A DNA stretch of 64,000 bases from Nannocystis pusilla (GTDB lineage: Bacteria > Myxococcota_A > Polyangia > Nannocystales > Nannocystaceae): the NCBI RefSeq assembly GCF_049337375.1, contig NZ_JBMPIV010000001.1; one strand, written 5' to 3'. This document shows, in pieces, positions 255-17,539 of this stretch. Position 1 is the first letter of the stretch. Each line of letters starts with the position of its first letter. The position numbers were made by a program, and so were the translations under genes. The notes below the pieces were generated by a model. The model was given only the letters and a program-made list of their open reading frames with translations. It did not search any database and was not told the origin of the DNA.

Positions 255-1274
255 TCACTCCGGCTGGGAGCCGTCGCAGGCGCCCGGGTCGGACTGCCAC
301 AGGTCGCAGTAGCGATCGGCCAGAAGGCCGCCGCGGCCGCTGTCGAAGTCGCCGCAGGTCGGGATGTCGTCGAGGGCGTCGAAGCAGAGCGGGTACTCGT
401 AGGGGACGCCGGCGTCGTCGAGCATCTTGAGGCGCCGCTGAGCGCCGACACAGACCGCGCCGTCCGGGCCCCACTCGGCCTCGATGCCCCAGTTCTGCAG
501 GGTCAGGGTCGCGGGGCTCTGGATCGCCGGGCTGAGGCCGTCGAACACGTCGATCGGCGTGCCGGTGAAGGTGTGCGGGGTGCCGTCGCCGCAGTAGTCG
601 GCGCGGGCCAGCCGCGTGCACGCCTGGTGGTGGTCGGCGAGGGAGACGCCGCCGACGGTGGCCCAGGGGCGATAACCCCACTCGACGCACTTGGCCAGCA
701 CGGCGTCCCGGCAGGCGAAGGTGACGACGCTGGCGTCGTCGTGGCGGTCGCCGGTGGTGCCGTCCCACCAGTTGCCGATGGCGATCGCCTGGGTCGGCTG
801 ACCGAGGTGGTCGTAGCAGAGGCTGGACCAGGTGCCGGCCTCCACGTCCTGCACCGCGATGTCATAGAACCACACGTCGCCGTCGGGGTCGGCCGGGTCG
901 AGGAAGATGTCGTCGAAGCGCAGGACGTAGGTGTCGGTGCCGGCCTCGAGGGTGAGCAGGGAGCCGATGAGGTCGTCGCCGCTCACCTGAACCGGAGTGC
1001 CGTCGACGACCATGGTGGCCGAGAAGCTGCTGCCGTTGAGGTTGATCCCGTTGAGGTTGATCCCGTTCATGGTCCAACCGTTCATGCGCATCCCGTTGAG
1101 GTTGATCCCGTTCATGCGCATGCCGTTGAACTGCGTCCCGTTCATCTGGGCGGAGTTCAACTCGAGTCCGTTACCGACGTCGCTTCGCAGCGTAACCGCC
1201 GTTTGAACGTCGTTATCGACGACATCACAGGCCACAACCGAACAGACCAGTGCCAGCCAAATCCCTCGAGTCAT
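255..1274 (-). CDS. ADYC-domain lipoprotein with Asn-Gly-rich pentapeptide-like tandem repeats
   Basis: Signal peptide ending in a lipobox Cys (LALVCSVVAC). Tandem NGINL/NGMRM units (MNGINLNGMRMNGWTMNGINLNGINLNG). C-terminal ARADYCGDGTPHTFTG motif typical of the myxobacterial ADYC domain. Confidence 0.6.
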   Translation of the reverse strand: MTRGIWLALVCSVVACDVVDNDVQTAVTLRSDVGNGLELNSAQMNGTQFNGMRMNGINLNGMRMNGWTMNGINLNGINLNGSSFSATMVVDGTPVQVSGDDLIGSLLTLEAGTDTYVLRFDDIFLDPADPDGDVWFYDIAVQDVEAGTWSSLCYDHLGQPTQAIAIGNWWDGTTGDRHDDASVVTFACRDAVLAKCVEWGYRPWATVGGVSLADHHQACTRLARADYCGDGTPHTFTGTPIDVFDGLSPAIQSPATLTLQNWGIEAEWGPDGAVCVGAQRRLKMLDDAGVPYEYPLCFDALDDIPTCGDFDSGRGGLLADRYCDLWQSDPGACDGSQPE

Positions 1275-1602: not shown

Positions 1603-2397
1603 TCAAGCGCCGGAGGCGATCGGCGTGGCGTCGGAGGGGATCGGCGCGGCGCGGCCGGGCACGATGCCGCGCTCCGCGAAGTCGGCGATGATCTTGTGGG
1701 CGCGCTCCATGACCTCGGCCAGCTCGGCGTCGGACAGGCCCTTCGTCTCGATCGGGGCGCCGACGTAGATCGTGATCTTGGTCGGGGTGAGCAGGTACGA
1801 GCCCTTGTGCATCAGATCGTACATGCCGTGCGTGGCCAGCGGAATGACCGGGAGGCCGGCGATGCGGGCCATCCAGAACACGCCGCGCTTGAACTCGGCG
1901 ACCTTGCCGTCGAGCGTGCGGTGGGCCTCCGGGAAGGCGAGGATCGAGATGCCCTTCTTGGCCCGGTCGCGCGCGGCCTCGGCGATGGCGCGGTAGCGGT
2001 TCTTGCCGCTCGGCACCGGGATGCCGTCGGCCAGCTTCATGATCCAGCCGTACATCGGGATCTTGAACTGCCAGGCGTTCATCAGGCCGCAGAAGGCGTG
2101 CGGGATCGAGGCGCAGGCGGCGTGGGCGTCGAGCAGGTTGACGTGATTCATCATGAACACGCCGCGCCGCTCGGGGTCGAAGTCGGGGTCGTAGATGATC
2201 TCGACCTTCGACAGGGTGATCTTGAGGACCGCGCCCATGCCGGGGCCGCCGATGTAGTTGTGGGTCTTGCGCGACGGGACCACCGTCGACACCGCGGCCC
2301 ACGTGACGGCGACGGCGCCCATCCACGCGAACGAGACGGTCCACACCGCGGCCGAGTAGACGACCTGAGCTGCCTTCTTGAGGATCTTGAACACCAT
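1603..2397 (-). CDS. 1-acyl-sn-glycerol-3-phosphate acyltransferase (PlsC/LPLAT family)
   Basis: NHVNLLD (HX4D acyltransferase motif) and FPEAHRT (FPEGTR-like) motifs. Two N-terminal TM helices. Starts 4 nt after the stop of the lipid-kinase gene. Confidence 0.75.
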   Translation of the reverse strand: MVFKILKKAAQVVYSAAVWTVSFAWMGAVAVTWAAVSTVVPSRKTHNYIGGPGMGAVLKITLSKVEIIYDPDFDPERRGVFMMNHVNLLDAHAACASIPHAFCGLMNAWQFKIPMYGWIMKLADGIPVPSGKNRYRAIAEAARDRAKKGISILAFPEAHRTLDGKVAEFKRGVFWMARIAGLPVIPLATHGMYDLMHKGSYLLTPTKITIYVGAPIETKGLSDAELAEVMERAHKIIADFAERGIVPGRAAPIPSDATPIASGA

Positions 2398-2401
2398 TAC
2401 A

Positions 2402-3310
2402 TCACGTCCGGACGTCGAGCGCGCCGGGGACGACCTCCAGCCGGCGCGGGTTTATCTTGATCATCTCGCCGTCGACCATGACGTCGATGTCCTCGGCGAG
2501 GCGGAGGTCGAGGCCGGGGGCCTGGTAGCAGCGCACGGCCGGGTGCTGCACGTGCGTGCCGCTGAAGATCTTGGGGAAGGTGCGCAGCAGGCCGACGCGG
2601 CCGAGGCGACCGACCCGGATGATGTCGAGCAGGCCGTCGCGCGTGTTGGCGTCGGGCGCCATCATCATCTTGCCGCCGGTGAAGCGGCTGTTGTTGAACG
2701 AGAGGAAGGTCAGCGGCTCGCGGTCCTCGGGGTGACCGTCGATCTGCATCGGGAAGGTGTAGGGCCGCAGCGCGGCCACCCGCAGCACGGTGCTCAGCGT
2801 GTAGCCGAACTCGCCCAGCGCCGAGAAGTTGCGGTTGCGGGTGGCGCCGACGTCGGCGACAAAGCCGATGCTGAAGATGTTGATGAAGTGCAGCGCGCCG
2901 CGGGTGTGCGTGCAACGAACGAGGTCGCACGGCCGGGTCTTGCCGGCGATGATCGCCTCGATCGCGTACTCGGCCCCCTGATCGGTGAAGTCGCGCAGGA
3001 AGGAGTTACCTGTCCCGAGGGGCAGCATGCCGAGCGACGGACGCTCGCCCGCCGGCAGCGCGCCGGAGAAGATGCCGTTTACCAGCTCGTAGCTGGTGCC
3101 GTCGCCGCCGACGGCGATAAAGTGGCGCCGGCCGGCCGCGACGGCCTCGCGCGCGAGCTCGGTGGCCTGACCGGCGGCCCGCGTCTCGACGACGTCGACC
3201 TTGATGCCCGACTGCCGCAGCCGGTCGACGACCGCGGGCGCCCGCTTGCCGCACACGCCGCCGCCGGCGGCTGGGTTGACGACTGCGAGGAGGGTGGCCG
3301 GATCGTGCAT
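2402..3310 (-). CDS. diacylglycerol/lipid kinase catalytic-domain protein (YegS/DAGK_cat family)
   Basis: GGDGT motif (FIAVGGDGTSYELVNG), N-terminal AVVNPAAGGG, overall DAGK_cat architecture. Confidence 0.75.
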   Translation of the reverse strand: MHDPATLLAVVNPAAGGGVCGKRAPAVVDRLRQSGIKVDVVETRAAGQATELAREAVAAGRRHFIAVGGDGTSYELVNGIFSGALPAGERPSLGMLPLGTGNSFLRDFTDQGAEYAIEAIIAGKTRPCDLVRCTHTRGALHFINIFSIGFVADVGATRNRNFSALGEFGYTLSTVLRVAALRPYTFPMQIDGHPEDREPLTFLSFNNSRFTGGKMMMAPDANTRDGLLDIIRVGRLGRVGLLRTFPKIFSGTHVQHPAVRCYQAPGLDLRLAEDIDVMVDGEMIKINPRRLEVVPGALDVRT

Positions 3311-3396
3311 GCGGGCATGCTATCAGGCCCCGGAGGGCCGTGGAGGGGCGGGTGGCCGCGGTTATGGGGCGTGAGCGGCGGTTGCCCCGCGGCGGT

Positions 3397-5112
3397 TCAC
3401 AGCTCGCGCAGGGCGACGTCGCGGCCGAGCGGCTTGAGCTCGCGGGCGAGCGGGTCGCGCTTGATCTTCTGCGAGGCGGTGCGCGGGAACTCGCGGTCCC
3501 ACAGCACGTAGGCGGAGATCCGCTTGTAGTCGGCGAGCCGGAGGTTGCGCTTGCGGAAGGCGTCGACGAGGTCGGCGCGGCCGGCCTCGTCGAGGCCCGA
3601 CTTGGGCCGCACGACGACGACGAGCTGCTCGTCGGTCATCTTGCCGGTCGGCCAGATGAAGTTGGCCGCGAACACGCAGAACTCCTCGCAGTCGTCGATG
3701 TCGCCGAAGGCGGCCTCGATGTCCTCGGGGTAGACGTTCTTGCCGCCCTCGGTGACGATCATGTTCTTGGTGCGGCCCAGCAGCTTGAGGTGCCCGGCGG
3801 CGTCGATGCTGCCGAGGTCGCCGGTGCGCAGCCAGCCGTCGACGATCGCCTCGCGCGTCAGCTCGGGCGCGTCGAGGTAGCCGAGCATGACCGTGGGCCC
3901 GCGCACCCACACCTCGCCGACGCCGGCCTCGTTGACGTCGCGCAGCTCGATCTCGGTGCCCTCGACCGCCTTGCCGACGCTGTCGCCGCGGAACGGCTTG
4001 AGGTCGTTGACGGTGAGGACGGTGCCGGCCTCGGTGAGGCCGTAGCCGATGGCGACCGGGAGGCCGAGGCGGTTGAAGTACTCGGCGCTCGTGCGGTCGA
4101 CGAAGGCGCCGCCGCAGAACATCAGCCGCAGCTTGCCCCCGAAGTACTCGTGGATCGGCGCGAGCAGGGTCTTGCTGAGCCGGTGGTCGGGCGCCTGGCG
4201 GGTGGCGTACTCGTTGAGGTCCATCAGGCCATCGAGCACGAGCCGCTGCCACTTCGGCAGCTCGGCGATCTTCTCCTTGATCTTCTTCTCGAGGGTCTTG
4301 AGGATCGTCGGCACCAGCGCCATGTGGGTGACGCCGTAGCGCTTCATGGTGCTGGCCAGGTAGGCCGGCCGCAGGGTGCGCTGGTGGACGACCGCGCCGC
4401 CCATCATCAGCGCGAGCAGGAAGCCGCACATGAAGTCGATGGCGTGGTTGGTGGGGAGGATCGAGAAGTAACGGTCGCCCTCGCTCAGCGGGTAGAGGTT
4501 GCCGAGGGTCTCGGCCTGGGCGAGGTAGTTGCCGTGGGTGAGCTGGCAGCCCTTGGCGGTCCCGCCGGTGCCCGAGGAGTAGACGATGCAGGCGACGTCC
4601 TCGCGGGCGCGGGCGTGGGAGGTGAAACCTGCTCCCTGGGGCAGGTCCTCCCAGCGCACGGCGCGGCCGATGCCGGCGCCCTCGGGGGCCTCGGTGACGA
4701 TGACGAGGGTGCGCTCGAAGATCGAGGGATCTTCGCGCTGCAGCTTGTCCCACGCCGGCCACTCGGCGAGGACGACGCGCGGGCGGCAGTGGGCCAGCAG
4801 GGCGTGCTGCTCGGGCGCGGTCAGCTTGTAGTCGATCGGGACCAGCACGGCGCCGGCCCACAGCGCTCCGGTCGCGCCGATCAGCCACTTCGACTGGTTC
4901 TGCATGACGATCGCGCAGCGATCGCCGGGGCCGAAGCCGTGGGCCTGAATCGCGCCGGCGAACCGCTCGGCCGCGGCCCGCAGCTCGGCGAAGGTGTGGC
5001 GCGAGTTCTCGCGGTGGCGATCGGCCTCGATCAGCGCGGTCCGGCTCTTGTACGTGATGGTGGCGTCACGCAGCGCCTCGCCGAGGCAGGACAGCTTTCC
5101 CAGGTCGAGCAT
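3397..5112 (-). CDS. AMP-dependent synthetase/ligase (long-chain fatty acid-CoA ligase-like)
   Basis: AMP-binding signature YSSGTGGTAKG. About 570 aa with TGDLG...GR.K C-terminal motifs. Confidence 0.8.
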   Translation of the reverse strand: MLDLGKLSCLGEALRDATITYKSRTALIEADRHRENSRHTFAELRAAAERFAGAIQAHGFGPGDRCAIVMQNQSKWLIGATGALWAGAVLVPIDYKLTAPEQHALLAHCRPRVVLAEWPAWDKLQREDPSIFERTLVIVTEAPEGAGIGRAVRWEDLPQGAGFTSHARAREDVACIVYSSGTGGTAKGCQLTHGNYLAQAETLGNLYPLSEGDRYFSILPTNHAIDFMCGFLLALMMGGAVVHQRTLRPAYLASTMKRYGVTHMALVPTILKTLEKKIKEKIAELPKWQRLVLDGLMDLNEYATRQAPDHRLSKTLLAPIHEYFGGKLRLMFCGGAFVDRTSAEYFNRLGLPVAIGYGLTEAGTVLTVNDLKPFRGDSVGKAVEGTEIELRDVNEAGVGEVWVRGPTVMLGYLDAPELTREAIVDGWLRTGDLGSIDAAGHLKLLGRTKNMIVTEGGKNVYPEDIEAAFGDIDDCEEFCVFAANFIWPTGKMTDEQLVVVVRPKSGLDEAGRADLVDAFRKRNLRLADYKRISAYVLWDREFPRTASQKIKRDPLARELKPLGRDVALREL

Positions 5113-5346
5113 CTAGCGCCTCGCGTCGATCTTCTGCGCCAGCGCGGCGAAGGTCTTGATCCCCTGGAGCTCGTAGTCGGGCAGCTCGACGTCGAACTCG
5201 TCCTCGACGTCCGAGATGAGCTCGACGGCCTGGAAGCTGTCGATGCCGAGGCGCTCGAACAGGTCGTCCTCGGCGCGGAGCTGGGCCGGGTCGGCGCCGA
5301 AGCGCTTGGCGGCGAGACGGATGAGGGTGTCGAGGGAGGTGCTCAT
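5113..5346 (-). CDS. acyl carrier protein (discrete ACP)
   Basis: 77-aa acidic protein with a GIDSFQAVEL phosphopantetheine-attachment motif. ATGA start/stop overlap with the upstream hydratase gene. Only the 3' 234 nt of the 496-aa ORF-track frame is the real gene. Confidence 0.7.
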   Translation of the reverse strand: MSTSLDTLIRLAAKRFGADPAQLRAEDDLFERLGIDSFQAVELISDVEDEFDVELPDYELQGIKTFAALAQKIDARR

Positions 5347-6116
5347 GGCAGGTACGGTCTCAGGTCGGTGGACTCGACGAAGCGCTTGAGGGCGGCCAGC
5401 AGCGCCGGGCCCTCGGCGAGGCGGACGAACAGCTCGCGCTCGGCGAGCAGCTCGTCCTTCGGGAGCTTCTTGATGAAGGCCTTGGCGGCCTTGCGCGCGG
5501 TCGGGTCGAACTTGGCGGTCTGGGCCGCGAGCGCGCGCGCGGCCGTGATGCCCTCGCCGGCGGCCAGGACCTGGCTGACGAGGCCGGCCGCCAGCGCCTT
5601 CTTGGCGTTGATGCTGCGGCCGCTCAGCAGGAGGTCGCGGATGAGGCCGTTGCCGACGTCGCGGCGCAGCCGCGGGATGCCGCCGAAGCCGGGGATGATG
5701 CCGAGGCGCAGCTCGGGGAAGCAGAAGCGCGCGGTCTTCTCGGCGATCAGGACGTCGCAGGTGAGCGCGAGCTCGAAGCCGCCGCCGAAGCAGACGCCGT
5801 GGACGACGCCGACGGTGGTCAGCGGCAGCATGTCGAGGTCGTCCATGACGCCGTGGATGGCGTCGATGAACTGGCGGATCTGCGGGCCGTGCTGGTCCTT
5901 CGGCGCGTCGGAGAGGCCGCGGTAGAGCTCGCGCAGGTCGGCGCCGGCGCAGAAGCCCTGGCGCAGGCCGCTGCGCAGGATCAGCGTGTGCGCGTCGCGA
6001 TCGATCTGGTCGAGGAAGCGGCGCAGATCGGCGAGCATGGCCGTGCCGATCTCGTTGCACGGCGGCGTGGCGAGGGTCAGCTCGTACACGCCTTCGCTGT
6101 AGGTCCAGTCGATCAT
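5343..6116 (-). CDS. enoyl-CoA hydratase/isomerase (crotonase family)
   Basis: Crotonase fold motifs (FCAGADL, GGGFELALTCD). Start taken at MIDWTYSEG, which gives ATGA coupling to the upstream ligase. The longer ORF-track N-terminus is Arg-rich and looks spurious. Confidence 0.75.
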   Translation of the reverse strand: MIDWTYSEGVYELTLATPPCNEIGTAMLADLRRFLDQIDRDAHTLILRSGLRQGFCAGADLRELYRGLSDAPKDQHGPQIRQFIDAIHGVMDDLDMLPLTTVGVVHGVCFGGGFELALTCDVLIAEKTARFCFPELRLGIIPGFGGIPRLRRDVGNGLIRDLLLSGRSINAKKALAAGLVSQVLAAGEGITAARALAAQTAKFDPTARKAAKAFIKKLPKDELLAERELFVRLAEGPALLAALKRFVESTDLRPYLP

Positions 6117-7747
6117 GACGCGTAGGCCTTGTCGATCTCGGCGCGGTAGCGCTGCTCGACGGCGCGGCGGCGCAGCTTCTGGTTGGCGGTGAGGAGGCCG
6201 TTCTCGATCGTGAACGGCTCGGCCACGCGGATGAAGGCGCGGACCTTCTTGTAGTGCGGGACGCTGGCGTTGACGACCTCGAGGGCGGCGTCGATGGCGT
6301 CCTTGGGCACGTCCCCGGGGACGATGATGCCGAGGAACGGCCGCGCGTGGCCGACCAGCATGCACTGCTCGGCCTTCGGGCAGGCGGCGAGGAACTTCTC
6401 CTCGATCGGCTCGGGGGCGATGTTGTGGCCCGACTCGGGGACGAGGATGTTCTTGACGCGGCCGATGATGCGGACGTTGCCGGTGGCGTCGAGGTCGCCC
6501 TGGTCGCCGGTGTGGAACCAGCCGTCCTTGATCGCCTCGGCGGTGGCCTGCTCGCGGCCCCAGTAGCCGGCGAAGATGCCCGGGCCGCGCACCAGCAGCT
6601 CACCCTCGTCGGAGATCTTGATCTCGCAGCCCTGGATGGCGTGACCGACGTAGCCGGGGCGCACGCCGCCGGGGATGTCCATGGTGACGATCGCGGTGGT
6701 CTCGGTCAGGCCGTAGACCTGGTAGACCTGCACGCCGACCAGCTCGAACCACCACTGCGTCTCCTCGGCCAGCGCCGCCGAGCCGCAGATCAGGAACTCG
6801 AGGCTGGGGCCGATCTGCTGCTTGATCTTGCTGAAGACCAGCTTCTTGGCGGCGGCCAGCGTGAGCCTGTCCAAAAGGCCAGCCTTGCCCTCGCGCTCGG
6901 CGCGGAAGGCGGCCTGGCCGCGGTTGTACAGCGCGAGGGCGAGGCCGCCGCGCTCCGCGATCTTCTTGCCGACGCCGTTCTTGATCCGCTCGAGCACCGC
7001 CGGCACGTTGAGGTAGTAGTGCGGGTCGGCGGCGCCCATCTCGGCGACGAGGTTCTGCAGGTCGGTCGACAGCAGCAGCGGGTTGCCGCGGTACAGCTGC
7101 GTCCACAGCATGACGCGCGAGCCGGCGAAGCAGAACGGCAGGAAGTGGAACACCTTGTCGGCCCGCTTGCCGCCGGTGATGCGGTCGACGCTGCCGCGGG
7201 TCTGCGGCAGCATGTAGTCGACGTTGGCGCGGGTGAGGACGACGCCCTTGGGCTCGCCGCTGGTGCCGGAGGTGTAGATGATGGTGACCGGGTCGGTCGG
7301 CGCGACGGGGCGCGGCGGCTCGTGCACGGGCTCGCCGGCGAGGACGTCGAGCATGTCCTCGATCGGGCAGTGCTCGGGCCAGGCGTTGCGCAGGCCGGCC
7401 GCGAGCTCGGAGCCGTCGGCGATCACGAGCACCGGCGTGCAGTCCTTGACCATGACCGCCAGCTCCTTCGGATCCTGGCGACTGTAGAGCGGGACGACGA
7501 TCGCGCCCTCGAACAGGATGGCGAGGTCGGCGGCGACCCAGCGGGCCGAGTTGGGGGCGAGCAGGGCGACGCGGTCGCCCGGCTTGACGCCGTGGCTGCG
7601 CAGAAAGCCGCGCGCGTGGGCCACGAGGTGCAGCAGCTGCGCGGCCGAGGTCGGCCGGCGGTCCTTGCCGTGGAGCTCGATGAGGAGCTGATCCTCGCGG
7701 GTCTTCTGGACCGCGGCGTGGATGACTTCGAGGAAGTTGTCGCTCAT
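6113..7747 (-). CDS. AMP-dependent synthetase/ligase (fatty acyl-AMP ligase / acyl-CoA synthetase)
   Basis: IIYTSGTSGEPKGV AMP-binding motif. Start chosen at MSDNFLEV (ATG 7745-7747), overlapping the upstream stop as ATGA. Confidence 0.8.
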   Translation of the reverse strand: MSDNFLEVIHAAVQKTREDQLLIELHGKDRRPTSAAQLLHLVAHARGFLRSHGVKPGDRVALLAPNSARWVAADLAILFEGAIVVPLYSRQDPKELAVMVKDCTPVLVIADGSELAAGLRNAWPEHCPIEDMLDVLAGEPVHEPPRPVAPTDPVTIIYTSGTSGEPKGVVLTRANVDYMLPQTRGSVDRITGGKRADKVFHFLPFCFAGSRVMLWTQLYRGNPLLLSTDLQNLVAEMGAADPHYYLNVPAVLERIKNGVGKKIAERGGLALALYNRGQAAFRAEREGKAGLLDRLTLAAAKKLVFSKIKQQIGPSLEFLICGSAALAEETQWWFELVGVQVYQVYGLTETTAIVTMDIPGGVRPGYVGHAIQGCEIKISDEGELLVRGPGIFAGYWGREQATAEAIKDGWFHTGDQGDLDATGNVRIIGRVKNILVPESGHNIAPEPIEEKFLAACPKAEQCMLVGHARPFLGIIVPGDVPKDAIDAALEVVNASVPHYKKVRAFIRVAEPFTIENGLLTANQKLRRRAVEQRYRAEIDKAYAS

Positions 7748-9225
7748 GCGTGGCGCTCCAGCAGGCGCTGCACGTTGGCCGGCAGCGGCGGCAGGTGGGC
7801 TTCCCAGGTGCGCGGGAGGTCGCGCCGCGGGAACTCGGGGTAGACGCGCACGACCTCGTCCATGAAGTCGATGCCCATCTGACCCATGAGCTTCAGCTGG
7901 GCCGGGACGGCGCGGGCGATGTCGGCGCTGATGCCCTCGGCGTCGCGCCACAGGCGGCGCAGGGTGTGCAGCAGCTTGTCGCCGAGGTCCTCCTCGTCGA
8001 CCTCGAAGAACATGTCCGGGTGGCCGCGATCGTTCATGAGGTTGCGGATCCGCTCGTCCATGGTGACGCCGGCGGAGGGCACGAGGCCGGGCATCGAGGT
8101 GACGATCGCGTGGAAGCGCGAGCTTATCATCATGCTGCAGTTACGCAGCACGCTGACGAGGTCGTACATGTCGTGCTCGTCGCTGACGAACAGCGCGCCG
8201 CCGCGGTCGAGCCGCGGCTGCAGGTCCTCGCAGGCGTGGCGGTCGAGCTGCTCCATGCCGACGAGGATGGTGAAGAACTCGCGCTCCGCCGCGAAGGCGT
8301 TGACGCCGTCGGCCAGGGCCTGGATGTACGCGTTGTACTTCTTGTCGGCCGCTTCGCTGTGGTGGTGGAAGTAGAAGGCGCTGTAGTGCTCGTGCTTGTA
8401 CTGCCCGCCGAGCTTGTAGGCGGCGTACTTGAGCAGGTCGGGCTTGACCGGCCACCAGAACGGGTTGATCGGGCAGACGACGAGGACCTTCTGGCGGCCG
8501 TCCCAGCCGGCCTCGCGCAACAGCTGAGCGCCGCGCGACAGCGGCGCGGGCTCGAAGGTCCAGGCGGTGTCGGCCCCGGAGGTGGTGCGGATGCCGAGCT
8601 CGCCGAGGACCTTGCGCGAGGGCTCGTTGCGGCAGATCACCAGCGACTTCTTGCAGGCGTCGCGCACGAAGTCGCGGAGCGCCGGGGTCATGTTGCCGGC
8701 CTCGGCGCCGTAGCCGACGCTGATCTTGTTCTCGGCGTTGGCGAGGCCGAGCGACCCGGCCATGAAGCAGGTCAGCGCGCTCGAGAACTTCGACTTGAAC
8801 ATCGAGCCCTCGCAAGCGATGACGCCGTGGTGCTTCGGGCACTCGGTGGCGATGAACTTGGGGAACACCGCCGGCAGCTCGATCTGGTGGACGGCGCGGA
8901 AGTAGCCGCGCGTCAACTTGGGATCGACGGTCATGATCGTCAGCTCGAGCTGGTCGTCGCCGACGACGTGGCGCAGCTGGCGGATCATCTCCTCGACGCG
9001 GACGTCGGCGCCGGTGTTGCGCGTGCCGACGTAGCCGGCCAGCAGCAGCTTGAGCGGCTTGCCCGGCTTCCACGTCTCGGGCGCCATGCCGAGGACGTTG
9101 CGGACGGCGACGCCCTCGATGGCGGCGGCGACGGTGGCCTGGAGGGCGCGGTCGGGGTCGACGACGTCCTTGACCTTGTCCCAGATCTTGCTGGTGGTCT
9201 TCTTGACGGGTGCGCTCTTGGACAT
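7744..9225 (-). CDS. polysaccharide pyruvyl transferase family-like protein (CsaB/WcaK-like)
   Basis: N-terminal LLAGYVGTRNTGADV resembles the GYYGxxNxGD motif. C-terminal SRFHAIVTSMPGLVPS resembles the R-x-H-x-x-I motif of PF04230. Motif-only assignment. Embedded in the lipid operon. Confidence 0.45.
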   Translation of the reverse strand: MSKSAPVKKTTSKIWDKVKDVVDPDRALQATVAAAIEGVAVRNVLGMAPETWKPGKPLKLLLAGYVGTRNTGADVRVEEMIRQLRHVVGDDQLELTIMTVDPKLTRGYFRAVHQIELPAVFPKFIATECPKHHGVIACEGSMFKSKFSSALTCFMAGSLGLANAENKISVGYGAEAGNMTPALRDFVRDACKKSLVICRNEPSRKVLGELGIRTTSGADTAWTFEPAPLSRGAQLLREAGWDGRQKVLVVCPINPFWWPVKPDLLKYAAYKLGGQYKHEHYSAFYFHHHSEAADKKYNAYIQALADGVNAFAAEREFFTILVGMEQLDRHACEDLQPRLDRGGALFVSDEHDMYDLVSVLRNCSMMISSRFHAIVTSMPGLVPSAGVTMDERIRNLMNDRGHPDMFFEVDEEDLGDKLLHTLRRLWRDAEGISADIARAVPAQLKLMGQMGIDFMDEVVRVYPEFPRRDLPRTWEAHLPPLPANVQRLLERHA

Positions 9226-9235
9226 GTTCGAAGGG

Positions 9236-10381
<1,146 letters not shown>

Positions 10382-10385
10382 GGTG

Positions 10386-12071
10386 TCAGACGACCTCGGC
10401 GTGGGGCGCGGGCGCGGCCTCGGGCGAGCGCAAGCGGAAGGGGTGGCGCGGGGCGTAGCTCTCGGGGGTCTTGTTCTCGAACAGCGGGAAGCACCACTTG
10501 CGAAGCCCGGGGATGTGGACGTCGATCCAGTAGTGGCGCCAGTCGATGCTGCGCGGGTCGCAGTCCCACTCGGGCTCGACGACGGGGTGCCGCAGCAGGT
10601 TGCGGGTGACGAACGCGAAGTAGTTGTCGTGGATGAACGGCAGGTAGAGCTCGCACATGCGCTCGATCTTGTCGATCGCCTCGAGCGCGTCCTCGGTGTG
10701 CTCGACGAGGTCGCCGAGCCGGCGGCGGATGAACTCCGGCCAGCCCTTCGGCGGGTCGCGCAGCCACTCGTCGACCGACTCGGTCATCTTGCGCACGTTC
10801 TCGATCCGCATCGGGTGGTCGGGCGTGACGGCGATCGCGTCCCAGCGCGACTTGACGACGCGGTCGAGGGTGGTGTCGCCGCGGGTGCGCAGGTGCTTGC
10901 GGTGGGCCAGCGCGACCAACTCGACGGCGCGGTCGATGGTGAGGAGGTTGAGGTCCGAGCTGCCGCACTGGTAGACCGGCGCGTGCTCGCCCCGCATCAG
11001 CGCGGCGCCGGCGACGGTCATGCCGCGGCAGACGTAGTCGACCGGGATGATGTCGAACGGGTTGCCCCGCTTGCACGGCAGGTGGCGGAACCAGCTGCCG
11101 AGCGCGTAGCTCAGCGGGCCGCAGGTGTTGAAGCCCTGGTTCCACCCGGGGAACGGGTAGCTCATGGCGCTCTCGACGATCGCGGGGCGGAACATGCTCC
11201 ACCGGCCGGGATCGAGGCGGCGGGCGATCCACGCCTCGGCCATGTTCTTGGTGTACGTGTAGATGTTGGTGAAGCCCCAGCGACCGGCGCGGCGCTGGCC
11301 CTCGGCGACCATCGCGTCCTTCAAGAGGTTGCGCTTGATCCGGCGGGCGGTGTTGCGCACCAGCATCGCGTTGGTCTCGTCGCCGCCCTTTTCGCGGATC
11401 TGCTTGACCGCGTCGTCGTGGGCGCGCTTGTCCATCTCCGGCGACTCGTGCTCGGCGAGGATGGCGTCGATGCTGACCTGGACCTCGGCGCACTCGACCT
11501 CGACGTCGAACGGCTGGCCGTCGGGCGAGAGGTCGGGGCGGATGTCCTCGGGGATGAGGCCGTTCTTCTTGCCGGTGACGTAGCAGGTCGAGATGTGCAG
11601 CAGCACCGCCTTGTCGCAGGCGGCGACGAAGTTGGCGGCGTTGCGGGCGCCCTCGACGTTGGTCGTCATGGCGTCGCGCAGGTCGGGGTCGAAGTCGACG
11701 AGGCCGGCGCAGTTGATCACGAGGTCGATGTCGCGGCGCAGGCGGGCCAGCACCGCCGGGTCCTCGACGCCCATGTCGGGCAGCGAGACGTCGCCGGAGA
11801 CGACCTCGATCCGCTCGCTGATGAAGCGGCTCATGTCGGCGCCGTACTTCTCGTGCAGCGGGCGGAAGCACGGCGAGGTCTGGACCTGGCGCTCGAACCG
11901 GTCAGCGGCGGGGCGCAGCGCCTTCTTGCGGGTGAGCACGTAGATCTTGCCGACGTCCGGCACGTGCTGCAGGACCATCGCCAGCCAGACCTTGCCGAGG
12001 AAGCCGGTGACCCCGGTGAGCAGGACGTGGCGGCCGGCGTAGCTGTGCTTGATCGAGATCGGCGTGTTCAC
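10386..12071 (-). CDS. fatty acyl-CoA/ACP reductase (FAR family, long form with C-terminal extension)
   Basis: [17 protein letters not shown]-type NAD(P)-binding motif. 561 aa. Starts 5 nt after the short reductase gene. Confidence 0.7.
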
Positions 12072-12113
12072 GGGTGTCCTCCGGTTCCTGTCCCCAAGGT
12101 CAGTCGCGTAGTC

Positions 12114-12791
12114 TCAGTCGCGGTAGTCGATGATCGGCCAGTCGGCGTCCTTGGCGCTGCGGCGCAGGACGAAGTCGGGGTTGACGGCGCACGGCTTGCC
12201 GACGCGCGAGAGCAGCAGCATGTCCGGGCCGTGGGCGCCGTAGGCGGCGCAGCGCGCGAGCTCGAGGTCGTGCGCGGCGGCGTAGTCGTCGAGCCAGCGG
12301 CCGCCGACGTTCGAGCCGATGACCGGGTCGAGCAGCTTGCCGGTGGCCTCGCCGTCCTCGAACTCGATCTTGTTGTAGACGAGCTCGTCGTAGTGCTTGA
12401 GGTGACGCGCGAGCGGCTTCATGATCGGCTCGATGCTGTCCGACAGCAGCACGACCCGCCGCCCCTCGGCCTGCAGGCGCTTGAGCAGCTCGAGGCCCTG
12501 ATCGAGGATCGTGTCCTTCAGGACATCCTCGGCGTACTCCTCGCAGAGGACCTCGACGCGGTCCTGGCTCATGCCGCGGATGGCGAGGTGGGCGAGGCGG
12601 TGGGCCAGCGCGCGGTCGGTCTGACCGAGCAGGCGGTGGACCGGGGCGGCGAGGCCGACGAGGCCGAGGCGGACGGCCCGCTCACCGAACTTCTTGGCGT
12701 TGCCGGCCAGATAGGCCGCCGCGCTGAGCACGCCGCGGGCGAGCAGGATGCCTTCGACGCGGACGAATGCTGCCGTGTTGGTTTGTGTCAT
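12114..12791 (-). CDS. HAD-superfamily (HAD-IB, phosphoserine-phosphatase-like) hydrolase
   Basis: HAD-IB-like core (VVLLSDSIEP, K...NKIEFEDGEATGK, GDS-like) in the C-terminal 225 aa. Start chosen at MTQTNTAAF (ATG 12789-12791). The upstream ORF-track extension is low-complexity. Confidence 0.6.
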   Translation of the reverse strand: MTQTNTAAFVRVEGILLARGVLSAAAYLAGNAKKFGERAVRLGLVGLAAPVHRLLGQTDRALAHRLAHLAIRGMSQDRVEVLCEEYAEDVLKDTILDQGLELLKRLQAEGRRVVLLSDSIEPIMKPLARHLKHYDELVYNKIEFEDGEATGKLLDPVIGSNVGGRWLDDYAAAHDLELARCAAYGAHGPDMLLLSRVGKPCAVNPDFVLRRSAKDADWPIIDYRD

Positions 12792-12984
12792 CGACCAGGC
12801 TCGCGGCCTAGTTAGCGCACCCGAGGCCGGCGTTACAAGCATTCGCGTGGCGTCTCGAATGCCTGCGAAGGCCGCTGCGCACGCCGTTTTACGCGTGCAG
12901 GGGGCTTCGCAGGACGGGGCGCAGAGGGGGCCTGGCGCCGCTCCGCGGGGCTTTGGTGCGATGCGTAGCGAGCGGACGAGATGT

Positions 12985-13000
12985 TTACTCGCGCGAGTAA
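12985..13000. promoter_or_regulatory. 16-bp perfect palindrome TTACTCGCGCGAGTAA in a divergent promoter region (candidate operator)
   Basis: Lies in the comparatively AT-rich 256-bp spacer between the divergent starts of the lipid operon (12791) and mqnB (~13048). Confidence 0.35.
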
Positions 13001-13047
13001 GTAGTTGGCGCGGACGATTGGTCGTGCGTTTAAGAAATTGCTCCCGC

Positions 13048-13737
13048 GTGAGACCGGTCGGGGCGTCACCGGTGGGACGCGCGGCGAGGTGCGCTATCGT
13101 TGCGTCCGTGACCGCGCCGCTGCTCGTCTGCGCCGCCGAGGTCGAGGGCCGCGGGCTGCCCTCGGCGCTGCGCCTCGGCGTCGGCAAGGTGGCGTCGGCG
13201 GTGAGCATGACGCAGGCGCTGATCGAGCGCCGGCCCGCGTGGGTGCTGCTGTTCGGGGTCTGCGGCGCCTATCCCGAAGGACATGGCCCGGGAGGCAGGC
13301 TCGACGTCGGCGACGTGTGCCTGGTCGGCGAGGACTGGCTGGGCGACGAGGGGGTGGCGGTCGACGACGGCTTCCTGCCGCTGGCGCAGCTGGGGCTCGG
13401 GTCGGTCGGGCCGTTCGCAGCCGACGCGGGACGCACCGCCGCGGCGGCGCGAGTGCTCGCGGCGCCGGTGGTGCGCGGGGCGACGGTCAGCACCTGCAGC
13501 GGGACGGACGCGCGCTCGCGTGAGCTGGCCAGCGGCACGGGGGCCACGGTGGAGACGATGGAGGGGGCAGCGGTGGCGTGGGCCTGTCGGGCGCTCGGGG
13601 TGCCGTGGGTGCAGCTGCGCTGCGTGAGCAATCGAACCGGCCGACGCGCCGCGGGCGGGTGGGACCTGCCGCGCGCGGTGGCCGGCGTGCAGGCGGCGCT
13701 GCTGCGAATGCAGGCCGCGGACTGGGGGAACGAATGA
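13048..13737 (+). CDS. mqnB: futalosine hydrolase (MTA/SAH-nucleosidase family)
   Basis: PNP_UDP_1 / nucleosidase-like sequence (AIVASVTAPL...VLLFGVCGAY...ETMEGAAVA). Directly precedes and ATGA-overlaps mqnD. No ATG available, so start assigned to GTG 13048 (alternative GTG at 13069). Confidence 0.6.
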   Translation: MRPVGASPVGRAARCAIVASVTAPLLVCAAEVEGRGLPSALRLGVGKVASAVSMTQALIERRPAWVLLFGVCGAYPEGHGPGGRLDVGDVCLVGEDWLGDEGVAVDDGFLPLAQLGLGSVGPFAADAGRTAAAARVLAAPVVRGATVSTCSGTDARSRELASGTGATVETMEGAAVAWACRALGVPWVQLRCVSNRTGRRAAGGWDLPRAVAGVQAALLRMQAADWGNE

Positions 13738-14552
13738 GCGAGCCGCTGCCTGTCGGGTTCTCGCCGTGTCCGAACGACACGTGGATGTTCGACGCGCTGG
13801 TGCGCGTGCCGGAGTTCGTGCCGGGGCTGCGGCCGCTGCCGTGGCTGGCCGACATCGAGGCGCTCAACGAGCGCGCGCTGGCCGGCGAGGCGCCGCTGCC
13901 GGTGACGAAGCTGAGCGCGCACGGGCTTTACTGGGTCGAGCGCGATTACCTGGTCTTGCGGACAGGTGCGGCGCTCGGCCGCGGGTGCGGGCCCCTGGTG
14001 GTCGCGCGCGAGGCGACGGAGCTCGCGGCGCTGGCGGGGCGGAAGATCGCCATCCCCGGCGCGTACACGACGGCGCACCTGCTGCTCCGCTGCTTCGCGC
14101 CGGCGTCGGTGACGGTGGTGCCGATGCGCTTCGATCGCATCATGCCGGCGGTGGCCGCGGGCGAGGTCGACGCGGGGCTGGTGATCCACGAGGCGCGGTT
14201 CGTGTTCCGCGACCACGGGCTTGAGCAGGTGGCGGACCTCGGCGAGGTGTGGGAGGCGGCGACAGGGCTGCCGCTGCCGCTCGGGGTGATCGCGGCCCAC
14301 CGCTCGCTGCCCGCGGGGCAGGTGCGGGCGGTGGAGGAGGGGATCGCGCGGTCGATCGCGGCGGCGGAGGCCGACCCGGCGGCGGCGTGGCCGTTCGTGA
14401 AGGCGCACTCGCAGGAGCTGAGCGACGAGGTGTGCCGGCAGCACATCGCGCTGTACGTCAACGAGTTCTCGCGCGACATGGGCGCGGAGGGGGCGGCGGC
14501 GCTGGCCGAGCTGCGGGCGCGCGGGCAAGCGGCGGGGCTGTTGCCGCGCTGA
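13734..14552 (+). CDS. mqnD: 1,4-dihydroxy-6-naphthoate synthase (futalosine pathway)
   Basis: N-terminal GFSPCPNDTWMF motif of the MqnA/MqnD (VitK2_biosynth) family. About 272 aa. Confidence 0.75.
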   Translation: MSEPLPVGFSPCPNDTWMFDALVRVPEFVPGLRPLPWLADIEALNERALAGEAPLPVTKLSAHGLYWVERDYLVLRTGAALGRGCGPLVVAREATELAALAGRKIAIPGAYTTAHLLLRCFAPASVTVVPMRFDRIMPAVAAGEVDAGLVIHEARFVFRDHGLEQVADLGEVWEAATGLPLPLGVIAAHRSLPAGQVRAVEEGIARSIAAAEADPAAAWPFVKAHSQELSDEVCRQHIALYVNEFSRDMGAEGAAALAELRARGQAAGLLPR

Positions 14553-14712: not shown

Positions 14713-15486
<774 letters not shown>

Positions 15487-15595
15487 GTCCGGCATTAATA
15501 GGAGAGAGCCGGGGGGGCGCCGCAAGCCCGCGGGCAAGAGGTGGCGCACGCGCAGGCACGGGCGCGCCGGCGCCGGATCGACTAGTGTTCGCCGC

Positions 15596-17539
15596 ATGTC
15601 GCTCGTCCAGCTCAGGGCCAGCAAGACGGCGCCGCCGCGGGACCTGCGGGCGTTCCTGCCGATGACCCGCGAGGAGATGGAGGCGCGCGGGTGGGACGAG
15701 CTCGACGTGCTCATCATCAACGGCGACGCGTACGTCGACCACCCGGCGTTCGGCGGGGCGCTGATCGGCCGGTTCCTCGAGGGCCGCGGGCTGCGGGTCG
15801 GGATGATCGCGCAGCCGCGCTGGGATGACCCGAAGGACATCTCGCGGCTGGGCCGGCCGCGGCTGTTCGTCGGCATCACCGCCGGCAACCTCGACTCGAT
15901 GCTCAACAAACTGACGGCGCAGAAGAAGATCCGCGGCGAGGATCAATACTCGCCCGACGGCGCGCTCGAGCAGCGGCCGAACCGCGCCAGCATCGTCTAC
16001 TCGAACCTCGCCCGGCAGGCGTTCCCGGGGCTGCCGGTGGTGCTCGGCGGCATCGAGGCGAGCCTGCGGCGGATCGCCCACTACGACTACTGGAGCGACC
16101 AGGTGCGCCGCAGCGTGCTGGTCGACAGCAAGGCCGACCTGCTGATCTTCGGCATGGGCGAGCGGCCGGTGTGGGAGGTCGCGCGGCGGCTCAAGGCCGG
16201 CGAAGACATCAGCACGATCCGCGACGTCCGCGGCACGGCGGTGATGCTGCCGAAGGGCCAGTGGGAGCACCTGCCGAAGAGCCGCTACGTGCGCGACGGG
16301 CTGCCGCTGCACCTGCCCAGCTACGAGGAGGCGAGCGCCGACAAGGACGCGTTCCTCGAGATGTCGCGGGCGTTCCAGCACGAGACGAACCCGGGCAACG
16401 GGCGGCCGCTGGTCCAGCCGCACGGCGACCGGGCGCTCTACTGCAACCCGCCGGCGCACCCGCTCGACATGCGCGACATGGACGCGCTGTACGACCTGCC
16501 GTTCGTGCGCCGGCCGCACTGGACGTACGCGGGCAGCAAGATCCCGGCGTTCGAGACGGTCAAGCACTCGATCGTGACGATGCGCGGCTGCTTCGGCGGC
16601 TGCACGTTCTGCTCGATCACCGAGCACGAGGGCCGCATCATCCAGTCGCGCTCGGCCGAGAGCGTGCTGCGGGAGATCCGGGCGCTGCGCCGCATGGACG
16701 ACTTCCGCGGCGTGATCTCGGACGTCGGCGGGCCGACGGCCAACATGTACCGCATGCGCTGCAAGAGCGAGCAGATCGAGAGCGCGTGCCGCAAGCTGTC
16801 GTGCGTCCACCCGGGCGTGTGCGAGAACCTCGACACCGACCACGGGCCGCTCGTCGACCTGCTGAAGAAGGTGCGCAAGGCCGAGGGCGTGCGGCGCGTG
16901 TTCATCGCTTCGGGCGTCCGCTACGACCTGGCAGAACGATCTCCGGCGTTCATCCGCGAGCTGGCGACGCATCACACCGGCGGACAATTGTCCGTGGCGC
17001 CCGAGCACGTGAAGGACGACGTGCTCGCCAAGATGAAGAAGCCCGGGGTCGCCAGCTACGAGCGCTTCGCCGAGCAGTTCACGTGCGCGAGCGAGGCCGC
17101 GGGCAAAGATCAGCATCTGGTGCCCTACTTCATTTCGGGGCACCCGGGCAGCACGCTGGACGACATGGTCGATCTCGCGCTGTGGCTGAAGGCGCGAGGC
17201 GTGCGGCCCAGGCAGGTGCAGGACTTCATCCCCACGCCGATGAGCATGGCGACCTGCATGTACTACACGGGTCGCGATCCGTTCACGCGCGAGCCGGTCT
17301 ACACGGCGAAGGAGCTGCGCGAGAAGAAGCTGCAGAAGTCGCTCCTCCTTTATTGGGATCCGGCGCAGCACCACCTCGCTCGCGAGGCGCTGCGCCGAGC
17401 CGGGCGCGCTGCGCTGATCGGTCACGGGCCGTCGTGTCTGGTGCCGCCGGAGGGAGGAGGAGCGACGCGCACACCTGGAGCGTCGCCTGTCCCGGGCGCC
17501 AGGCGGGCACGGCGCGGGCTCGGGGCCGCCGGACCGTGA
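15596..17539 (+). CDS. ygiQ: YgiQ family radical SAM protein (UPF0313)
   Basis: FLPMTREEMEARGWDELDVLIINGDAYVDHPAFG N-terminus characteristic of YgiQ. CFGGCTFCS radical-SAM Cys triad. Start at MSLVQ is uncertain (alternative MTREEM at 15662). Confidence 0.8.
   Translation: MSLVQLRASKTAPPRDLRAFLPMTREEMEARGWDELDVLIINGDAYVDHPAFGGALIGRFLEGRGLRVGMIAQPRWDDPKDISRLGRPRLFVGITAGNLDSMLNKLTAQKKIRGEDQYSPDGALEQRPNRASIVYSNLARQAFPGLPVVLGGIEASLRRIAHYDYWSDQVRRSVLVDSKADLLIFGMGERPVWEVARRLKAGEDISTIRDVRGTAVMLPKGQWEHLPKSRYVRDGLPLHLPSYEEASADKDAFLEMSRAFQHETNPGNGRPLVQPHGDRALYCNPPAHPLDMRDMDALYDLPFVRRPHWTYAGSKIPAFETVKHSIVTMRGCFGGCTFCSITEHEGRIIQSRSAESVLREIRALRRMDDFRGVISDVGGPTANMYRMRCKSEQIESACRKLSCVHPGVCENLDTDHGPLVDLLKKVRKAEGVRRVFIASGVRYDLAERSPAFIRELATHHTGGQLSVAPEHVKDDVLAKMKKPGVASYERFAEQFTCASEAAGKDQHLVPYFISGHPGSTLDDMVDLALWLKARGVRPRQVQDFIPTPMSMATCMYYTGRDPFTREPVYTAKELREKKLQKSLLLYWDPAQHHLAREALRRAGRAALIGHGPSCLVPPEGGGATRTPGASPVPGARRARRGLGAAGP

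Follow-up and report, generated by a model that had tools for sequence, protein, structure and literature searches.

We found that ten genes at positions 1603 to 12791 of a 64,000-nucleotide stretch of Nannocystis pusilla DNA (contig NZ_JBMPIV010000001.1; the whole stretch is called the window here) form an operon of lipid enzymes. By analogy with the elb ether-lipid genes of Myxococcus xanthus, we put at about 0.5 the probability that the product is a glycerolipid derived from a fatty alcohol, most likely an alkyl ether lipid. The operon would then be a disaggregated and remodelled relative of elb. The genes, numbered G1 to G10 from the 5' end, are as follows.

G1, 12114-12791, minus strand, 225 aa (242 aa with the alternative ATG at 12842): HAD-IB-fold protein, a homologue of ElbB.
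G2, 10386-12071, minus strand, 561 aa: FAR1-type fatty acyl reductase (FAR).
G3, 9236-10381, minus strand, 381 aa: stand-alone thioester reductase.
G4, 7744-9225, minus strand, 493 aa: GT-B-fold protein of the polysaccharide pyruvyl transferase family.
G5, 6113-7747, minus strand, 544 aa: acyl-coenzyme A (CoA)-synthetase-like adenylating enzyme, accessory.
G6, 5343-6116, minus strand, 257 aa: crotonase-fold enoyl-thioester hydratase.
G7, 5113-5346, minus strand, 77 aa: discrete acyl carrier protein (ACP).
G8, 3397-5112, minus strand, 571 aa: adenylating enzyme encoded directly after the ACP gene.
G9, 2402-3310, minus strand, 302 aa: soluble lipid kinase of the YegS/DgkB type.
G10, 1603-2397, minus strand, 264 aa: PlsC/AGPAT-type acyltransferase.

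We set the gene starts by start-codon mapping, called domains by Pfam and subfamilies by NCBIfam, and identified solved-structure relatives by PDB comparison. The third-position G+C content was 0.94 to 0.99 in the frame of each gene and marked a single coding frame at a time across the operon, on the minus strand throughout (the window as a whole is about 70% G+C). Reading the junctions from the sequence, we found ATGA overlaps at three of them (G4/G5, G5/G6, and G6/G7) and a 0-nt junction at G7/G8. The gaps between G2 and G3 and between G9 and G10 are 4 nt each, that between G3 and G4 is 10 nt, and two are wide: G1 to G2 (42 nt) and G8 to G9 (86 nt). A preliminary description of this DNA had proposed a ten-gene operon on one strand with 4-nt or 1- to 5-nt junctions throughout; the operon stands, but the two wide gaps contradict the uniform junctions. 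The domain names given there were all recovered by Pfam hidden Markov model searches. Scans of the minus strand detected no terminator-like hairpin inside the operon and no sigma-70-type consensus in the upstream region, and both scans are uninformative at 70% G+C.

In M. xanthus, elbA to elbE encode an NAD-epimerase-type protein, a HAD protein, a protein of unknown function, the FAR-acyl-CoA synthetase (ACS)-ACP-AGPAT fusion ElbD (MXAN_1528; MIBiG BGC0000871), and a second epimerase-type protein (PMC9131029). M. xanthus needs ElbD to make alkyl and vinyl ether lipids, and in vitro work has confirmed the ACS and ACP activities of the protein (PMC9131029). Its adenylation (A) domain activates long-chain fatty acids. 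To compare the operon with ElbD, we used 34 ElbD-type proteins of 1250 to 1700 aa, taken from the best 150 matches when G2 was searched exhaustively with HMMER; the set does not include ElbD of M. xanthus. Four were scanned by Pfam. Three of these have the full architecture (NAD_binding_4/Sterile, AMP-binding, PP-binding, and Acyltransferase), and the remaining one gave an adenylation domain fragment only.

We found that four operon proteins match the four parts of ElbD. G2 aligned over the full length with the N-terminal domain of the ElbD-type proteins at 31 to 37% identity. G8 aligned with the A domain at mostly 30 to 36% identity, with a few values down to 23% (E values of 1e-65 to 1e-85 for most), and the A domain was consistently nearer to G8 than to G5. 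G7 matched the ACP domain in 4 of the 34 proteins (35 to 40% identity), and G10 matched the acyltransferase domain in 30 (21 to 38% identity). The parallel with ElbD drawn in the preliminary description is borne out by sequence: the reductase corresponds to G2, the adenylation domain to G8, the ACP to G7, and the acyltransferase to G10. As had also been noted there, the functions are discrete here; fused in ElbD, they are separate genes in a different order in this operon. The picture of ElbD in pieces holds for these domains but is incomplete, since further enzymes are present.

The individual proteins carry the features expected of these assignments. G2 has a GTG start with GGAGG ahead of it. 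It matched NAD_binding_4 (6e-49) and, weakly, Sterile (20 bits against a cut-off of 35.4), has the motifs GVTGFLG and YTYTK, and has the fatty acyl-CoA reductase 7eoz as its closest solved relative (4.6e-33). We classed it as FAR1-type by its NAD_binding_4/Sterile domains (Sterile being weak), its GxxGxxG and YxxxK motifs, and its similarity to a solved FAR. G10 matched Acyltransferase (3e-15), has the HX4D motif in the form HVNLLD, and is the least conserved member of the operon (median, 36% identity). G9 matched DAGK_cat (3e-27) and YegS_C (2e-31), contains a GGDG motif, and scored 152 bits with the lipid kinase model TIGR00147 (YegS/Rv2252/BmrU), above the cut-off of 119. No other operon protein reached an NCBIfam cut-off, and the G9 subfamily is a generic lipid-kinase one. 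The catalytic motifs are intact in G2, G3, G5, G6, G7, G8, G9, and G10.

A HAD-like gene precedes the FAR-type reductase gene in both the elb system and this operon. G1 matched the HAD family (Pfam, 1.2e-18) and was 32 to 35% identical to the HAD protein at the ElbB position of two elb-type operons (35%, with an E value of 6e-40, for locus L087). Those ElbB-position proteins retain DxDGTL. In contrast, motif I of G1 in the window reads RVEGIL where DxDGTL is expected. Across about 60 orthologues, the motif F-[FW]-R-[VA]-E-G-x-L varies little, and none has lost the Arg or the Glu; neither G1 nor any of these orthologues has HAD motif I, DxDx[TV], with its nucleophilic aspartate. Because RxEG replaces the catalytic DxDG of ElbB in every orthologue, G1 is very unlikely, judging by its sequence, to be a conventional phosphatase, and the earlier label of HAD phosphatase does not fit a protein that lacks the catalytic aspartates. 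We also considered G1 as an active phosphatase opposing the kinase and rejected this as unlikely for the same loss.

We found natural fusions of G1 to G2. In P0261 (798 aa), the HAD-like part has the motif FWRVEGSL, and further fusions are P0304, P0287, P0356, and P0259. Since the nucleophile is lost and G1 can be fused to G2, G1 is probably a non-catalytic or repurposed partner of the reductase. A related fusion occurs outside these systems, on a plasmid of Streptomyces sp. NBC_01562 (NZ_CP109358.1; L081:4081-12071). There, genes for an AGPS-like, FAD-linked oxidase (556 aa), a PlsC acyltransferase, and a short-chain dehydrogenase/reductase are divergent from genes for three further proteins: one hypothetical, one a 771-aa FAR-Sterile-HAD-IB fusion (which carries only the annotation "HAD-IB family hydrolase"), and one ferritin-like. 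Together with the G1-G2 fusions, this FAR-HAD-IB fusion therefore reinforces the link between the FAR and the HAD-like protein.

By its gene content, the Streptomyces locus looks like an AGPS-type ether-lipid cluster. The AGPS-type route comprises FAR1, GNPAT, AGPS, alkyl-dihydroxyacetone phosphate reductase, AGPAT, and alkylglycerol kinase/phosphatase (ACAD10). Bacterial versions of it are MXAN_1676-1674 and, apparently, the Streptomyces locus L081. With this route, the operon has in common a FAR1-type reductase with Sterile, a PlsC-type acyltransferase, a candidate alkylglycerol kinase, and a HAD-fold partner of the FAR. However, the FAD-dependent AGPS-like oxidase is absent from the operon, the kinase G9 is of the DAGK_cat type whereas ACAD10 is of the APH type, and G1 has no nucleophile. 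The mammalian ether-lipid pathway needs both an alkylglycerol kinase and a HAD phosphatase (PMC13596139), an analogy that favors an ether-lipid role for the operon.

To see how far the resemblance to elb extends beyond ElbB and ElbD, we used the elb-type operons themselves. Locus L087 holds the full elb order: an epimerase, a HAD protein, a 533-aa Lar_N (LarA-like) protein, an ElbD-like protein, and an epimerase. L086 is arranged similarly. The Lar_N gene lies between the HAD and ElbD-like genes in both (L087:3588-5189 and L086:5371-7011; 533 to 546 aa), and because this position matches the elbA to elbE order (PMC9131029), we took ElbC to be a Lar_N protein. An enzyme of the nickel-pincer, hydride-shuttling type would be of potential mechanistic interest in such an ether-lipid operon. 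None of the ten operon proteins has a Lar_N domain by Pfam, and blastp of them against the Lar_N proteins gave no match. We rejected G4 as an ElbC homologue, since the ElbC position holds the Lar_N protein. We also rejected G3 as ElbE: it is of the thioester-reductase type and matched no ElbE-like protein, its only match being to an ElbA-like protein (26% identity; E value of 2e-7). The elb system has Lar_N and ElbA/ElbE-type epimerases that are absent here, and it has no counterpart of G3, G4, G5, G6, and G9. Judged by these sequence comparisons, the operon is homologous to the ElbB and ElbD parts of elb, with G3, G4, G5, G6, and G9 in place of the Lar_N and epimerase parts.

To determine whether the ten genes belong together, we retrieved 80 loci with G4 and searched the ten window proteins against them by tblastn. 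The gene order G1 to G9 (or to G10), 9 to 10 genes, recurs in most of the 80 loci and in at least three phyla. It is kept in Nannocystaceae, Sandaracinaceae, Polyangiales, Bradymonadia, Bdellovibrionota, and many Acidobacteriota, the last including Terriglobia, "Ca. Sulfotelmatobacter," Acidiferrales, and Blastocatellia. Incomplete patterns are mostly due to contig ends, and G9 is present wherever the contig extends that far. Because an order of 9 to 10 genes recurs in most loci, the arrangement is far beyond chance. Identity to the window proteins is typically 35 to 60% across carrier loci, and an order conserved across phyla at this divergence therefore indicates one selected pathway.

This bears on the idea that the genes serve ordinary phospholipid turnover or fatty-acid degradation and are clustered by happenstance. 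The hydratase, the acyl-CoA ligases, PlsC, and the diacylglycerol kinase each have housekeeping relatives, as this idea would predict. However, only the kinase subfamily reaches its NCBIfam cut-off; G4, the discrete ACP, and the pair of dedicated thioester reductases do not belong to turnover; and the fixed order and translational coupling favor one pathway. We regard happenstance clustering as extremely unlikely.

The thioester-handling proteins form the core of what the operon has beyond its elb-like parts. G3 matched NAD_binding_4 (1.6e-43) and the thioester-reductase domain TIGR01746 (2e-38) and contains the motif YARTK. Its best solved relatives are the terminal reductase of MxaA (1.3e-17), a polyketide-synthase reductase domain, and carboxylic acid reductase. 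By these relatives, G3 belongs with the reductases that release acyl groups from a carrier. G2 and G3, the two genes previously called FARs, thus both encode acyl-thioester reductases and not sugar epimerases, the placement that the preliminary description had named as counting against its proposal.

G5 (AMP-binding, 5e-63, plus AMP-binding_C_3) and G8 (AMP-binding, 5e-71) both have intact adenylation motifs. The best NCBIfam match of G5 is FadD11, below the cut-off, and its best solved-structure relatives are CoA ligases and not fatty acyl-AMP ligases (FAALs). The same is true of G8, whose best solved relatives are MenE, feruloyl-, oxalate-, and malonyl-CoA ligases, and FadD13. The FAAL label once given to these two proteins is not supported by their nearest structural and NCBIfam relatives. 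G7 matched PP-binding (9e-14), and the serine of its phosphopantetheine site (IDS37F) is conserved. In nonribosomal peptide synthetase-like carboxylic acid reductases (A-T-R; CAR; MxaA-type), the same unit of adenylation, carrier, and thioester reductase occurs that G8, G7, and G3 represent here. Here, however, the parts are discrete, a crotonase stands between loading and release, and the unit is embedded among glycerolipid enzymes.

That crotonase, G6, matched ECH_1 (9e-38). Both catalytic glutamates, E115 (GGGFE115) and E135 (PE135LRLG), are present and at least 97% conserved. Conservation across phyla extends to the last four residues, P-Y-L-P (window 5343-5357); the G6 stop codon forms an ATGA overlap with the start of the ACP gene. 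Crotonases do not usually have a conserved extreme C terminus, and here it might reflect an interaction between G6 and the ACP.

A canonical hydratase between an adenylation-ACP pair and a releasing reductase implies an enoyl- or 3-hydroxyacyl-carrier intermediate, and this brings in a non-ether product made from reduced fatty acids. Such a product could be a glycerol-free (phospho)lipid built on a 3-hydroxy-aldehyde or 1,3-diol, or a wax-type or acylated fatty-alcohol lipid. The hydratase and thioester reductase would act on long-chain enoyl- or 3-hydroxyacyl-ACP, the kinase would phosphorylate the diol, and the AGPAT would acylate it. Consistent with this, we found a FabH/KAS III-type ketosynthase gene between G6 and G7 in a Blastocatellia locus (L033:15227-16279), and a kinase and an acyltransferase fit any lipid diol. 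However, the operon has no wax synthase or DGAT gene. A non-ether product would also leave G4, a strongly conserved part of the core, and the FAR/HAD-like pair unexplained, and elb, the nearest homologous system, has been linked to ether lipids (PMC9131029). We consider a non-ether lipid possible but rather unlikely.

G4 is the operon's distinctive component. It matched PS_pyruv_trans (PF04230; 1.7e-11, 45 bits against a cut-off of 25.3), a score that upholds the earlier view of the 493-aa protein as pyruvyl-transferase-like. With the CsaB equivalog model TIGR03609, the alignment spans almost the whole model, but the score of 73.5 bits is below the cut-off of 213. The fold is GT-B-like with two domains, resembles Pvg1p, and is nearest to lipid-acting GT-B enzymes such as PimA; Foldseek against the PDB gave generic GT-B matches only, with a TM score of about 0.5. 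Sequence searches of the PDB with the single sequence and with a 50-sequence profile gave chance-level matches only, and tblastn against plasmids gave no match. G4 has more than 7,000 homologues in the protein collection, the nearest in Nannocystaceae and other Myxococcota. G4 proteins form a family of their own that is highly conserved (more than 50% identity from one phylum to another).

In CsaB, the phosphoenolpyruvate (PEP)-site residues R148, R306-x-H308, and K328, with spacings of 158 and 20, were defined by mutagenesis (PMC10435577). G4 has the conserved residues R199, R370-F-H372, and R392, with spacings of 171 and 20. We mapped R199, R370, H372, and R392 of G4 provisionally to R148, R306, H308, and K328 of CsaB, on motif and spacing only. 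G4 shares with the PF04230 proteins (CsaB, Pvg1p, and WcaK) the GT-B-like fold, and the spacing of its Arg, Arg-x-His, and basic residue resembles that of the PEP site of CsaB. It differs from them in being longer, with N- and C-terminal extensions, and in its context, which is lipid and thioester metabolism and not polysaccharide synthesis.

The PF04230 membership and the nearness of the fold to PimA-like, lipid-acting GT-B enzymes raise another possibility, that the operon makes the lipid anchor of a cell-envelope glycoconjugate. G4 would then be a saccharide ketal-pyruvyl transferase or a glycosyl-type transferase acting on a glycolipid head group. We found GT87 (PimE-like, GT-C) genes at two loci, between G8 and G9 in Paraliomyxa miuraensis (L010:16861-18597) and just downstream of the operon in a metagenome-assembled genome (MAG) of Terriglobia (L057:18977-20233, minus strand). 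These neighbors hint that the lipid is perhaps glycosylated in some lineages. However, GT87 occurs in just these two loci among those with extra genes annotated and not in the Nannocystis operon, and conservation of the operon does not extend to any sugar-nucleotide, flippase, or polymerase gene. G4 is also far below the CsaB equivalog cut-off and lies between, and is translationally coupled to, genes for thioester-handling enzymes. A glycoconjugate anchor is improbable in our judgment.

The reading that we prefer is a fatty-alcohol-derived ether lipid, made as follows. G8 and G7 would load a carboxylic acid onto the carrier protein, by analogy with the A-ACP pair of ElbD. G2, fed by G5 or by a housekeeping ligase, would supply the fatty alcohol, and G8, G7, G6, G3, and G4 would build or modify the moiety joined to it. 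G9 could phosphorylate the lipid alcohol, as an alkylglycerol or diacylglycerol kinase does. Acylation by G10 would then give an ether analogue of phosphatidic acid that enters phospholipid synthesis. Since the operon encodes no Lar_N protein like that of the ElbC position, no ElbE-type epimerase, and no AGPS-like enzyme, the leading candidate for the formation of the ether bond is G4.

Several observations weigh against this pathway. To our knowledge, neither a hydratase nor a pyruvyl-transferase-family enzyme has a place in any established ether-lipid route. The Lar_N protein and ElbE-type epimerases of the elb-type operons are missing, and ElbE is reported to matter for ether lipids (PMC9131029), so the chemistry may differ. 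Among the Acidobacteria, elb clusters, agps homologues, and prominent ether-bound iso-diabolic acid have been described in subdivision 4, whereas many carriers of the operon are Terriglobia-class MAGs. By tblastn (E value of 1e-8), G10 was not detected beside the operon in 14 Acidobacteriota loci and 1 Sandaracinaceae locus that extend more than 3.9 kb downstream. The only cultured carriers that we identified are Nannocystis pusilla, Nannocystis sp. RBIL2, and Paraliomyxa miuraensis, and we found no lipid data in the literature tied to any of the three.

To compare constraint along the operon, we counted strictly invariant residues in a common set of 35 loci. G6 had the highest fraction (22.6%), followed by G3 (18.4%), G8 (18.0%), G7 (16.9%), and G4 (16.8%). 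The fractions were lower for G2 (9.6%), G10 (8.0%), and G1 (4.1%). An invariant set of adenylation enzyme, ACP, hydratase, thioester reductase, and G4 beside a looser FAR and AGPAT suggests a fixed substrate in the one case and variable chains in the other.

This pattern, together with a hydratase in need of a substrate, led us to propose a PEP route, in which a three-carbon alkylglycerol backbone is built from PEP around a pre-formed ether bond. G5 and G2 would make a fatty alcohol, and G4 would add enolpyruvyl from PEP to give a 2-alkoxyacrylate, with ether chemistry like that of MurA but on a GT-B scaffold. G8 would load the alkoxyacrylate onto G7, and G6 would hydrate the alpha-alkoxy-enoyl thioester to 2-O-alkyl-glyceroyl-ACP. 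G3 would then release alkylglycerol reductively, for G9 to phosphorylate and G10 to acylate. The route gives every otherwise unexplained enzyme a chemically natural substrate. It is consistent with the CsaB-like spacing of the conserved residues of G4, with both hydratase glutamates in G6, and with a G3 of the type that releases carrier thioesters. Its central proteins, G8, G7, G6, G3, and G4, are the most constrained (17 to 23%, against 4 to 10% for G2, G10, and G1), and where G5 is lost, G4 and G6 still overlap.

The PEP route is nevertheless entirely inferred. We know of no PF04230-family enzyme that acts on a fatty alcohol, and the mapping of the G4 residues is one of motif spacing only. 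G8 is homologous to the A domain of ElbD, an activator of long-chain fatty acids. In addition, the route predicts an sn-2 ether. The known myxobacterial and acidobacterial monoethers are sn-1. We hold the route as a whole to be quite unlikely, and equally doubtful is its main consequence, that G4 is a new kind of ether-forming enzyme that transfers enolpyruvate from PEP to a fatty alcohol without AGPS, ElbC, or PlsAR/Ger. If it were true, its abundance in soil Acidobacteriota would make the operon a candidate for the aerobic supply of alkyl-glycerol precursors to branched glycerol dialkyl glycerol tetraether (brGDGT)-type lipids.

An alkyl-ether product, our preferred reading, would bear on a question that is unresolved in aerobic bacteria, the formation of the alkyl ether bond, the ether-forming step of M. 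xanthus elb included (PMC9131029). Acidobacteria are suspected producers of the brGDGT palaeoclimate biomarkers, with elb or agps reported in only some subdivision 4 genomes. The operon adds a second, widely distributed elb relative with a different set of accessory enzymes, and it is very common in soil Acidobacteriota and in marine and soil Myxococcota metagenome bins. It is also a compact, clonable candidate set that includes the conserved G4 and the nucleophile-less HAD-fold protein. Both this operon and elb occur in Myxococcota and Acidobacteriota, and BLAST screens with whole ElbD could score the split genes as partial "ElbD homologues," so recognizing the operon sharpens such surveys.

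The only split elbD variant that we found in the literature has the reductase apart from the A-ACP-acyltransferase part. Diacylglycerol kinases and glycerol-3-phosphate acyltransferases have been reported beside elbD homologues in sponge symbionts (bioRxiv 10.64898/2026.06.23.733905), which likewise favors an ether-lipid role; the supplements of that paper make no mention of a pyruvyl transferase or of ElbC. We found no literature description of the operon or of a lipid role for a G4-family protein. The operon's putative route to a fatty-alcohol-derived membrane lipid has probably not been described before.

The loci vary in several ways. G5 is absent in nine Myxococcota/Bradymonadia loci, and there G4 overlaps G6. 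G10 lies beside the operon in 26 loci (tblastn; E value of 1e-8). In L057, genes for a VKOR-family protein and an esterase, along with the GT87 gene, follow G9 in the place of G10. In a Terriglobales MAG (L075:13090-19425), G6-G7-G8-G9 is inverted relative to G1 to G5, with an EamA-type transporter gene between the halves. At the position of the L033 ketosynthase, loci L053, L055, L059, and L070, three of the four from Blastocatellia, have a gap with a 333- to 351-aa open reading frame (ORF). Two large within-cluster insertions were taken as unrelated: genes for SIR2-like, solute-binding, and Ser/Thr kinase proteins in L011, and ORFs without a Pfam match in L007.

Among species-representative genomes, the window matched N. 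pusilla Na p29 and Nannocystis sp. RBIL2 at 98 to 99%. In Na p29 (L001:8847-9987 and 13110-13878), the G3 and G6 orthologues each align as two overlapping pieces, as in a frameshift. Both genes are intact in the window and in RBIL2, and the split genes of Na p29 are probably assembly indels, not pseudogenes. Thousands of soil-metagenome matches to the Terriglobia and Blastocatellia G4 orthologues included no cultured Acidobacteria.

The genes around the operon are as follows.

12792-13733: upstream region between the operon and divergent futalosine-pathway genes; presumed promoter region.
12748-13737, plus strand: ORF with a PNP_UDP_1 domain, futalosine-hydrolase-like.
13578-14552, plus strand: ORF with a VitK2_biosynth domain, MqnA/MqnD-type.
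255-1274, minus strand: gene directly downstream of the operon, for an ADYC-domain protein (PF20032, 1.7e-60).
15485-17539, plus strand: 684-aa radical SAM protein (Radical_SAM_N plus DUF3362), YgiQ type.

The divergent plus-strand pair at 12748-14552 suggests that menaquinone is made by the futalosine route. In its long form, the PNP_UDP_1 ORF would run into the 5' end of G1, and its real start codon therefore probably lies further downstream. From 14 to 38 kb, the window holds housekeeping and regulatory genes unrelated to the operon. The YgiQ-type radical SAM gene lies 2.7 kb upstream of the operon, on the opposite strand.

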